Virus record (IMG/VR): IMGVR_UViG_2657245634_000007
Coordinates: 1-17,758 of that record
Origin: a virus
Taxonomy: Duplodnaviria; Heunggongvirae; Uroviricota; Caudoviricetes
Length of the DNA: 17,758 nt
Reading direction: 5' to 3' (one strand)
Position numbers: made by a program. Below, in pieces: positions 6,001 to 9,000 of this stretch. Positions within the stretch are counted from its first letter, which is position 1. Every line of letters starts with the position of its first letter.

Positions 6001-9000
6001 GGGTTAACACAAGATGCGTTGGCTAAAAAAGCTGGGATCACCAGAGTTGCAATCAGTAAAGCCGAGCAAGGCCTTACAAAAAGTTTCAACGGTGACACCC
6101 TTTTTAAAGTTGCAGCTGCACTGCGGTGTTCACCGCAGTGGCTTCAGAACGGAGATGAAAAAGATAAGCATTGGGAAAATAATGTTAAGAGCTGCCCACA
6201 GAGAGACACAGCACACTCTTACCCTGTAATTAACTGGGTTCAGGCAGGATTATTCGCAACTTCTGGTGATGACTACAACATGTATGATCAGGATAATTGG
6301 AGGCATTCTGTAAAATACGCTGGTGAGAGGGGGTTCTGGCTGGAAGTGCACGGAGACTCAATGACTTCGCCCGTAGGAATAACATTTCCTGAAGGAATGT
6401 CGATCCTTGTCAACCCAGATAAAGAAGTTTTTTCAGGGTGTTACGTCATCGCCAGAAAAAAATCCACCAATGAAGCAACATTCAAAAAATATATTTCTGA
6501 CATGGGAAAGGCGTTTCTAAAGCCCCTTAATCCACAATATCCAATCATAGAAATGGACAATGATTGCGAAATAGTAGGTGTTGTGGTTGATGCCAGGTGG
6601 GATATTTTCTGACCAGACACAAAACACAAAACACAAAAAGAAACCAAAGTATCAAAAATCACTTGCCACACCTTGATACCTTAGTTACCATAAAACAAAG
6701 TTCGTAACTGAGGTATCATCTCATGATCAATAAAGCTACAACTCTTGACTGTCTCGAAGAACTGAAAAACCTCGGCAGCCTCATTACACTAATAGCAAAA
6801 GCAACACCTGATGCTACGCTCTCTAGCGATATAGAGTCATGCGCAGGGCTGGCATGGGATATGACAAATAGCATATCCAGAAAGCTATCGTCAGCAATGC
6901 TTTTACAGAATAAAAATTCTGCAATCAACAACCGTCTTCGCACCCAACGCGAAGCCTGCGGCTTAACAACCGCCGAACTCGCCAGGCTGCTCGATCTCGA
7001 TGAAGAAATTATCATCCAGTGGGAGAGCGGAGAGTATGAACCAACTATCAGTATGCTTATCCCACTGGCAAATATTCTTGGCTGCGATCCGATGTGGCTG
7101 TTAACTGGTAAACCAACAGGTGGGGATACTTGCGCATGAAAAACTGTGATGCTTACCATATTTGTCTCATTGGTGAATTGCTTGATTTCATACAAAAAAG
7201 CACTGCGCGCAATAATAAAAATATAACATATGGTGATCTGGTAATAATTTCAGAGGATATAAAGAGCATCGCTCTTAAATTCAAGAGCGACGCGAGTATT
7301 GATGACGCTATTTACGCTTATCTTGCGAAAATAATTGACGGATCCAAAATCCAGCCTCTGGATGAACCTCGTCAGTGAAAAACTCCTTTGATGAAGATGA
7401 GAACTGCTTCATAAACTTTACTTTATCTTCAGGTGAAACTACCTGACGAATTAATGCGGAGATAGCAACTTTGTGCCAAATTAATTCTTTTTTGAGTTCT
7501 GAAATCTCTTTTTCGAGTTGCTCTGCGTTAATCATTTATCCTCCATTGAGAGCTGAATTGAAAATGGGGACCAACACGCGGCTACGTGTGGTCGTGCGCC
7601 GGACACGGATAAGCATCCGGTAACTGATTATCAATCATTGCGGAAACAGTCTCAATATGAAAACACTTCTGAGACTCGCTATATAGCAGGACATATAAGT
7701 CAGCTGAGGAAGCCATGAAAAAGTTCGAAAACATAACTGTTCTCCATGTTGATGACTTTGATTATACAAACCCGGAACTTCTCCCGGAGGTTGTAAAGGC
7801 AATAGATGTTGCCGATATAGTGATTAGAGAAAAGAGAATTGTCAAAAACAGGCTCGCATGCACTTCAGGAGCAATGACAGAAACAACCTCACAGCAAGAT
7901 AATTACGAAGGCATTTGTCTGGAGCCTGATTCATTTGCGGTAAATGTTTATCATTTATTGCATGCAACACAGGTATTACATATGTCCAGTAATCACGAAA
8001 CGAAAACACTCGGCAGCGAAATTCTGAGTTTTGCATGTGAGTATACAAAAGCTGCTGCCGAAAAAGAATTAGCGCAATAACAACAAATATGCCCTGAACG
8101 TTTATTGCGGTTTTATCGCCGGGGATTGTTACAACCTTAATCCACAGGAGGCTTTATTGTGACTTTTATAAAGAATATGGCATCACACAAGACCGCCTGC
8201 CTTATTGCACAATACGGTGAAAATTACATGCATATTGCCTGCTTATTTCTGCGTAAAGCATACGGGAGATAATAATGCATCAGAAAACAGCAGAACACGA
8301 ACAAACCAGAGTATTGCTGACCATCAAAAACGGGAAAGTAATATTCATTCGCCATGTTCATGACGATGAACTTGTAGGAACTCTTTCAACATTCCTGTTT
8401 ATTGCAGAAAGGGCAGGATATGACGTTATTGCACCAGCAGATGAAGATGAAGATGAAGATGAAGATGAAGATGAAGATGAGGAATAAATATCATGCAATA
8501 CGATGAATTCCAGGCTGAAGCAACAGCCAATGGTATACGAACTGGCAGTATGACGATTGATTATCACGACGCCATACGTCGTCTGGATGCCGGAGAATTC
8601 GATACTCCTAATGTGCGAGGTTTACGTATCCTTCAGTGTCTGGCGCAAGCCGACGAAGCAGGATTACTGGGTAAACTTCCGGTTGAGATGAAGGTTGCTC
8701 AGTGGCGATGGTTGTATGTGACGACATTCATCAACGAAGAAGAAGACAAGAACGGCACAATTGATATCTTGAATGAACACGGAACAACTGAACACGCCGT
8801 GGTATATAACGGGATGTATGGGTTTATGACGATATATCCCGGCCCCATTCGATTTGCCTTACAACAGTATATTGAATGGAATTTAATTCAAAAATACGGC
8901 GAAGCTGAAGGAATGGGAAGAGCGCTGTTTCTTTATCAGAAAATGCTCACTACTTCCCCTGATAAAGGTTTCATTCTTTCAGATATGGGTCGAGAAGGGC

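Follow-up and report, generated by a model that had tools for sequence, protein, structure and literature searches.

A putative small antirepressor of the FsoA/GfoA family with an in-frame hexanucleotide repeat of variable length in a lambdoid prophage of Escherichia coli

Introduction

What does a small prophage protein with a run of aspartate and glutamate at its C-terminus do, and does its function reside in this acidic tail or in the part of the chain preceding it? The question is raised by a window of 17,758 nucleotides (nt), by which we mean the whole stretch of DNA analysed here (virus record IMGVR_UViG_2657245634_000007 of IMG/VR, Caudoviricetes). The window comprises the early region and the attachment end of an Escherichia coli prophage, lambdoid in type and inserted at yecE, and on the plus strand, at 8275..8487, it contains an ATG-started gene for a protein of 70 amino acids (aa), MHQKTAEHEQTRVLLTIKNGKVIFIRHVHDDELVGTLSTFLFIAERAGYDVIAPADEDEDEDEDEDEDEE, homologous to L07 of phage phiP27. 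An earlier note, made from the sequence of the window alone, had pointed out this open reading frame (ORF) with its poly-(Asp-Glu) end (ADEDEDEDEDEDEDEE), both confirmed by the ORF call and the translation, and had interpreted the tail as a DNA mimic of the anti-restriction type.

We arrive at a different answer: the gene probably encodes a small antirepressor of the FsoA/GfoA family, related to Rem, which would be linked to the SOS response, act in trans and mediate crosstalk between prophages. What is new here is a predicted, previously unlabelled member of this family with an unusually expanded in-frame acidic variable-number tandem repeat (VNTR), which extends a known mechanism to further members and combines it with an ordinary coding microsatellite but does not amount to a new kind of system.

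The antirepressors of the Gifsy prophages act by an established mechanism, binding short, non-cleavable repressors (Lemire, Figueroa-Bossi & Bossi 2011, PMC3121763): the dimeric repressor is bound in an A2B2 complex, as observed for GfoR-GfoA, and the DNA is freed, GftA releasing GtgR from operator DNA in gel shifts. The fsoA gene belongs to the left operon of Fels-1, which is under the cleavable CI-like repressor FsoR; FsoA inactivates the Gifsy-2 repressor in trans, leading to derepression, and is not needed for the induction of Fels-1 itself (PMC3121763). Homologues of the short repressor genes gfoR and gtgR are reported to be present in most E. coli strains (PMC3121763). In K-12, Rem of the Qin prophage, discovered via its similarity to GfoA (Gifsy-1) and FsoA (Fels-1), is an antirepressor of the short non-cleavable helix-turn-helix (HTH) repressor DicA, increasing the expression of dicBp-lacZ 165-fold (PMC10448788).

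All 19 E. coli and phage records inspected, those of Stx1- and Stx2-converting (Shiga toxin) phages included, label the 70-aa gene itself as hypothetical; in RefSeq, the protein is WP_000553976.1, a hypothetical protein from a 100%-identical prophage of E. coli O111:H21. Neither this protein nor the product of the abutting 37-codon gene has a family match in Pfam-A, NCBIfam or PADLOC. In PHROGs, the 70-aa protein is assigned to phrog_340, a family of unknown function (E = 6e-24), and the C-terminal regions of two families named 'anti-repressor' (4792 and 2379) align to its core.

Homology of the core domain

The conserved core of the protein spans residues ~10-52 (8302..8430, plus strand); it comprises a beta-hairpin (13-18/21-27) and a helix (37-46) and ends in an AGY.V motif. 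An exhaustive search of 1.84 billion representative proteins with a narrow profile built from close relatives yielded only 38 relatives, mostly of 55-85 aa, which have in common a core of ~45 aa, roughly RVLLTIENGkVi..R.v.dDE.iaslDtFl.lAe.AGY.V.pP.

Three characterized antirepressors and a GfoA-like protein were compared with the L07 core by BLASTP and by two hidden Markov models, one built from close E. coli L07 sequences only (A2) and one from the diverse family (A5), for which the best of 1000 shuffles scored 6.3 and 11.0 bits, respectively. FsoA matched the core with 48.6% identity over 37 aa (E = 1e-9; A2, 29.4 bits; A5, 61.0 bits), and the GfoA-like protein did so with 37.8% over 45 aa (E = 2e-6; 18.2 and 25.8 bits). 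The match to GftA had 27% identity over 37 aa (E = 0.008; 2.6 and 6.9 bits), while Rem gave no BLASTP match and scored 2.5 and 12.7 bits; when the family profile was aligned with K-12 Rem by HHalign, 42 columns were covered with the probability of 81.5% (E = 1e-5). The residues common to L07 and FsoA/GfoA are spread over the entire core. As judged by these comparisons, the homology of the core to FsoA and GfoA is solid, and its relation to Rem and GftA, though remote, is consistent.

Further relatives fall in between. Two proteins from the 1.84-billion search, P0052 (E = 6e-5) and P0062 (E = 9e-4, both values library-wide and from the narrow profile), are similar to FsoA in both the N-terminal segment and the core, and many of the distant relatives, ~63 aa long, carry a precomputed match to Pfam PF27490, a family given the name 'Rem' in a locus table.

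The reference proteins were identified by exact matches of published primers. For FsoA, the arms of primers le154 and le162 (PMC3121763) were matched to the Fels-1 genome: the PBAD arm (MNSQQMM) and the 3xFLAG arm (EAGIRFEEISNVG) are found exactly at L022:3160-3181 and 3354-3393, respectively, and define FsoA as the 78-aa coding sequence STM0898.2n (L022:3160-3396). GftA and the GfoA-like protein were recovered by the same approach. An exact 40-mer search of IMG/VR for the 3' end of gfoA from ATCC14028 gave no match, and a 23-mer search found genes with a slightly different C-terminus; hence the protein scored here is GfoA-like rather than the exact published GfoA. As no Gifsy phage was reached by tblastn with FsoA, the link between FsoA and GftA rests on the alignment in PMC3121763.

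The protein is also of the right size. Small antirepressors are single-domain proteins of about 60-85 aa, and the length here is 70 aa, or 60 aa without the repeat expansion. FsoA is likewise a small single-domain protein (49% identity over the 37-aa core), although its N-terminus is extended by ~30 aa and its tail, EEISNVG, is short and contains no repeat. The antirepressors GfoA, GfhA and GftA (Gifsy-1, -3 and -2) have the same core motif (...NG.V..R.l.dDE......f....r.lGY.VtPP; for the GfoA-like protein, 38% identity over 45 aa). The similarity to Rem (b1561, PF27490), which is also small and encoded by a lambdoid prophage of E. coli, is a remote homology across the whole core, but there is no pairwise BLAST similarity to L07.

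The core domain also occurs in other arrangements, namely at the C-terminus of a fusion with Phage_pRha (P0050) and as two tandem copies in single proteins (the set P0050, P0037, P0040, P0053). Such core-Rha fusions probably explain the 'anti-repressor' labels on some Rha-type proteins. Whether the core resembles the two Rha proteins that the window itself encodes was tested as well, with a negative result.

The distant Rem-type relatives in loci L018 and L020 (Klebsiella/Raoultella-type prophages) lie in a nin-like region, adjoining DUF1367 and DUF968/RecA-dependent nuclease genes, and Tad2-like and Acb2/Tad1-hairpin anti-defence genes are situated close by.

Genomic position and proposed function

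The region of the 70-aa gene corresponds to the lambda pL (left) operon, and the gene has the same position as fsoA in Fels-1, that is, downstream of a CI-like prophage repressor (5881..6612, plus strand). The repressor is of the cleavable type, with an HTH_3 and a Peptidase_S24 domain in Pfam (LexA family protein in RefSeq), has the architecture of FsoR and is the presumed controller of the left operon. No LexA box was found within the window. We consider the antirepressor function the most likely one because, in addition to the homology, the placement is identical to that of fsoA: in the left operon behind an HTH+S24 repressor, with no LexA box. The likeness to Fels-1 extends to the 37-codon gene considered below, whose homologue is located upstream in the same operon. 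The Gifsy genes differ in this respect, lying well away from the immunity region as part of a dinI operon under direct LexA control, and so does rem, which lies in a late or nin-like region near ydfU.

By analogy with fsoA, the following course of events may be proposed. Upon DNA damage, the RecA-cleavable CI-like repressor would cleave itself, the left operon would then be transcribed and the 70-aa protein made. Its beta-hairpin/helix core of ~45 aa would bind a short non-cleavable repressor of the DicA/GfoR type and displace it from its operators, so that the induction of several prophages would be coupled. The target would probably be the repressor of another resident prophage, or possibly the product of an adjacent gene, the homologue of phiP27 L10 (6723..7139, plus strand). 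The latter is a 138-aa HTH protein whose HTH domain has 36% identity with DicA (E = 7e-15), the domain order being different, and on this similarity it is a candidate target in cis. For FsoA the target is known (GtgR of Gifsy-2), whereas for the 70-aa protein there are only candidates. The tail, in this scheme, would be a disordered C-terminal extension generated by replication slippage in a GATGAA repeat, its length moving in steps of two residues and faster than point mutations arise.

The link to FsoA and GfoA gives a hypothetical gene a testable function. If the protein is an antirepressor acting in trans, it could make several prophages of polylysogenic E. coli respond together, their induction being coupled, which would bear on the induction of Shiga toxin phages and on genes of cryptic prophages such as dicBF.

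Alternatively, the core could be a generic protein-interaction module, and in this subfamily its partner could be a host factor or the co-transcribed products of the L06 and L08 homologues rather than a prophage repressor. Indeed, identity to FsoA is nil outside the ~40-aa core; the neighbours vary by subfamily (L06 here; in Fels-1, a 119-aa gene upstream and a 131-aa gene downstream); the domain is found in tandem and fused to Rha; and no fold match provides an independent functional clue. On the other hand, every one of the four members with experimental data (FsoA, GfoA, GftA and Rem) acts as an antirepressor on a short HTH repressor, the residues shared by L07 and FsoA/GfoA cover the whole core, and the gene is placed as fsoA is. 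We regard this alternative as unlikely.

Several observations weigh against the antirepressor function. The similarity to GftA (E = 0.008) and to Rem (12.7 bits, with the best shuffle at 11.0 bits) is marginal, and hence the link to Rem rests mainly on the HHalign result and on the intermediate sequences; the close L07 relatives have no precomputed PF27490 match. The left operon is broken by a 75-aa gene on the minus strand (7308-7535). FsoA has no detectable role in the induction of its own prophage (PMC3121763), which leaves the biological payoff unclear. The role assigned to the 70-aa protein is a prediction from sequence, and the repressor that it would target is only a candidate. Finally, the gene is frameshifted in O157:H7-type prophages and is dispensable in at least some lineages.

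The last point might suggest a decaying accessory gene of no further importance to the prophage, with the repeat expansion being neutral junk. Good conservation of the core, however, extends from E. coli through Salmonella and Klebsiella and further, most genomes carry an intact ORF, and all the repeat changes preserve both the frame and the downstream Shine-Dalgarno sequence; thus we hold such decay to be very unlikely.

The hexanucleotide repeat

The acidic tail is encoded by a perfect array, (GATGAA)6 followed by GATGAG, at 8439..8480 on the plus strand (period 6, 7.0 copies and 100% matches in Tandem Repeats Finder). The in-frame hexamer array described in the earlier note is hence real, and its span is slightly longer than the 8440-8475 given there. 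The window has no second array like it, and perfect periodicity over 42 nt cannot have arisen by chance.

If the array is subject to slippage, as the earlier note supposed, its length should differ between closely related prophages without a break of the frame, and such differences are indeed observed. The spans of matches of a 521-nt query in complete genomes differ by steps of 6 nt (521, 515, 509, 503, 497, 491). At the sequence level, the window and E. coli O111:H21 strain 15A both have seven copies; there are six, five and four copies in three further genomes; three copies in two loci, one of which is phage PhiR49_2; and two copies in four loci. Thus the copy number among near-identical homologous prophages takes every value from two to seven, while phiP27 and ASU11 have no hexamer repeat at all. 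In PhiR49_2, all the compared flanking bases (475/475) are identical to those of the window, yet the array has three copies instead of seven; two other genomes with identical flanks have five and four copies; and several repeat lengths occur on both the R46 and the K46 background. Since the copy number differs while the flanks are identical, the length changes faster than point substitutions accumulate, and the GATGAA array is a fast VNTR that is always in frame.

As the unit is 6 nt long and the array is at the 3' end of the gene, every allele remains in frame, and we observe length variation, with polymorphic copy number, rather than the on/off switching of a phase-variable contingency locus. 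At the end of the tail, the codons GAT GAG GAA TAA (within 8476-8492) form GAGGA, a Shine-Dalgarno-like sequence 9 nt before the ATG of the L06 homologue (8493). This likely Shine-Dalgarno sequence is the same in all alleles, and its spacing is unaffected by the repeat expansion.

The alleles are unequally abundant. By contig counts in a collection of 15 billion proteins, the 60-aa and 62-aa alleles are present in at least 1000 contigs each, the 64-aa allele in ~280 and the 66-aa allele in ~90; for the 68-aa and 72-aa alleles there is a single contig each, and this collection lacks the exact 70-aa sequence. Thus abundance drops as the length rises, two to three copies being usual and the seven-copy allele rare.

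In these properties the array is similar to the coding 6-bp VNTRs of E. coli used in multiple-locus VNTR analysis, which likewise are perfect, in-frame hexamer arrays with copy number differing between otherwise identical sequences, but here the array sits in an antirepressor homologue. To our knowledge, this locus has been neither used nor described as a VNTR.

The acidic tail

The tail encoded by the array comprises residues 55-70 (8437..8484, plus strand), has the net charge of -15 and is predicted to be disordered. In the AlphaFold2 model built from a diverse alignment, residues 11-50 of the core form the beta-hairpin and the helix with predicted local distance difference test (pLDDT) values of 94-97, and residues 61-70 of the tail have pLDDT ~60 and no secondary structure, which is consistent with disorder; an initial model from a shallow alignment was of low quality (pLDDT 64). 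No fold match was found among solved or viral structures, and a profile search of PDB sequences gave chance-level matches only.

The tail is not a family trait. The tails of the relatives are short, mutually unrelated and mildly acidic (median length 8 aa, median charge -1.5); 29 of the 32 parsed rows, two of them mis-parsed, are net negative, and none is poly-(Asp-Glu). The poly-(Asp-Glu) tail is limited to one recent E. coli sub-lineage, where most members end in DEDEE only, whereas members from phiP27, ASU11, phi467, Klebsiella and Fels-1 have unrelated tails, and some subfamilies are non-acidic or almost tail-less. Word-indexed searches with the full protein were swamped by poly-(Asp-Glu) words (8000 candidates scored, close relatives only) and were redone with tail-trimmed alignments.

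These observations bear on the suggestion of the earlier note that the protein works against restriction or other defences by mimicking DNA, with the acidic tail blocking defence enzymes that bind DNA. The known mimics Ocr (T7 gp0.3) and ArdA are rigid, folded, acidic mimics of B-DNA and not disordered tails. The 70-aa protein resembles them in its strong negative charge (about -15 in 16 residues), and its gene belongs to an early operon, the place where lambdoid phages keep some of their anti-defence genes; the Tad2-like and Acb2/Tad1-like genes near the distant Rem-type relatives also agree with such a role. However, its charge resides in a variable, non-conserved and probably disordered tail, and the acidic residues of the model do not form a rigid folded surface. 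The tail is absent from the distant relatives and missing or minimal in most family members. The protein shows no homology to Ocr or ArdA and no match to an anti-restriction or defence family in Pfam, PHROGs, NCBIfam or PADLOC, or among PDB sequences and folds, whereas its core is homologous to a characterized unrelated family, that of the antirepressors FsoA and GfoA. The suggestion therefore finds no support, and we consider it extremely improbable.

A mimic of another kind would be compatible with the homology of the core. The tail could act as a tuning knob, competing with operator DNA for the DNA-binding surface of the repressor, so that the VNTR length would set the potency or specificity of the antirepressor and produce heritable, fast-changing thresholds of cross-induction. 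Operator-mimicking antirepressors do exist: in CarS of Myxococcus xanthus, acidic residues occupy the DNA-recognition helix of the repressor (PMC2926617). This precedent provides the only route by which the idea of DNA mimicry could partially survive; nevertheless, CarS has an unrelated SH3-like fold with no homology to the 70-aa protein, and the mimicry is performed by a structured surface rather than by a disordered repeat tail. The rapid and recurrent length changes, always in frame so that every allele is expressed, and the mostly net-negative tails of the family are in favour of tuning. Against it, long alleles are rare and those with two to three copies dominate, which suggests no gain from long tails; other subfamilies have a non-acidic tail or nearly none; and the predicted structure gives no evidence of a contact made by the tail. 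Moreover, C-terminal 3xFLAG tags, themselves acidic, do not significantly impair FsoA or GftA (PMC3121763). Altogether, we find a tuning role of the tail rather improbable. Its extension to a functional rheostat, in which the tail length alters the strength or the repressor range, perhaps via competition with operator DNA, and slippage varies the cross-induction thresholds among co-resident prophages, related Stx-converting phages included, is slightly less probable still.

Since the tail is rare at the seven-copy length, FsoA and GftA tolerate 3xFLAG and the rest of the family has no such tail, we interpret the poly-(Asp-Glu) extension of this putative antirepressor as most likely a tolerated, presumably near-neutral product of slippage that is not required for function. 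At the same time, the VNTR constitutes a natural allelic series bearing on whether the C-terminal acidic extension matters.

In a second subfamily (L006 from phi467, L007 from Klebsiella phage P18-100, L015/L016; P0027, P0034, P0035, P0039), a C-terminal motif D/N-S-x-T-x-S, for example TDSDTNS or INSNTNS, is retained although the cores diverge, which hints at a functional tail motif there.

The 37-codon gene

The 70-aa gene is preceded by a 37-codon ORF (8159..8272, plus strand, GTG start; product MTFIKNMASHKTACLIAQYGENYMHIACLFLRKAYGR), which stops 2 nt before its ATG. As stated in the earlier note, this ORF has a strong Shine-Dalgarno sequence; it reads AGGAGG (8146..8151, plus strand), lies 7 nt upstream of the GTG and is conserved in the relatives. 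It had been supposed that the ORF might be a leader peptide or a coupling ORF of the 70-aa gene.

The first possibility, an L07-specific leader peptide, does not agree with the data. The ORF is intact in all 15 loci (9 distinct nucleotide sequences), always with 37 codons there and with a conserved Shine-Dalgarno sequence, the start codon changing between GTG and ATG. The numbers of variable columns at codon positions 1, 2 and 3 (15 loci) are 13, 5 and 23 (chi-square p = 0.003), the rate of nonsynonymous substitutions is well below that of synonymous ones in nearly every informative pair, and the ending ...RKAYGR* is kept in all relatives. The ORF also precedes unrelated genes: in L015 and L016 it is followed by a gene of 119 aa and in Fels-1, where its length is 35 codons, by one of 69 aa. 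No terminator-like site was found on the plus strand in the scan around the 70-aa gene; the Rfam, promoter and terminator scans there gave nothing meaningful. Hence we may conclude, from its pattern of conservation, that this is a genuine, separately conserved small gene under purifying selection, which travels with L08.

The second possibility appears plausible: the Shine-Dalgarno sequence of the 70-aa gene (GGGAGA, 8264..8269, plus strand) is supplied by the last codons of the 37-codon gene, so the two genes could be translationally coupled across the 2-nt gap.

A tblastn search located the 37-codon gene in 35 phage records, where it often lacks an annotation, and none of the RefSeq E. coli records inspected annotates it. 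It is carried by phiP27, ASU11, Fels-1, Stx phages and phages of Cronobacter and Aeromonas. Neither Pfam nor PHROGs nor NCBIfam assigns its product to a family.

Other features of the locus

Upstream of the 37-codon gene, the same module contains the homologue of phiP27 L08 (7715..8080, plus strand, phrog_5451), of which RefSeq has only a shorter, 68-aa form. Downstream of the 70-aa gene lies the homologue of L06 (8493..9074, plus strand), a protein of 193 aa from phrog_1515 with unknown function. It is followed on the plus strand by a MarR-like gene (ORF 9043-9306), Ea22-like genes, xis and int; the integrase gene (13197-14510) is followed by yecE, yecN, cmoA and cmoB.

Close relatives are found in 266 of 5426 complete E. 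coli genomes, as well as in Stx1- and Stx2-converting phages. A 3-kb query (7000-10000 of the window) has a 100%-identical copy in O111:H21 strain 15A, which is broken by IS903B (L001 10351-11319), situated downstream of the L06 homologue, where the window (~9075-9300) has the MarR-like ORF.

Three further tandem repeats are present in the window. A perfect 7-bp repeat (ACACAAA, 3.1 copies, 6617-6638) follows directly on the gene for the CI-like repressor, at the place where one would expect a control region of the pL/OL type. The other two, at 2047-2088 (21 bp, 2.0 copies, perfect) and 2676-2722 (15 bp, 3.1 copies), are located on minus-strand replication genes, annotated in RefSeq as encoding ATP-binding and HTH-domain proteins in the identical prophage, and may be origin iterons.

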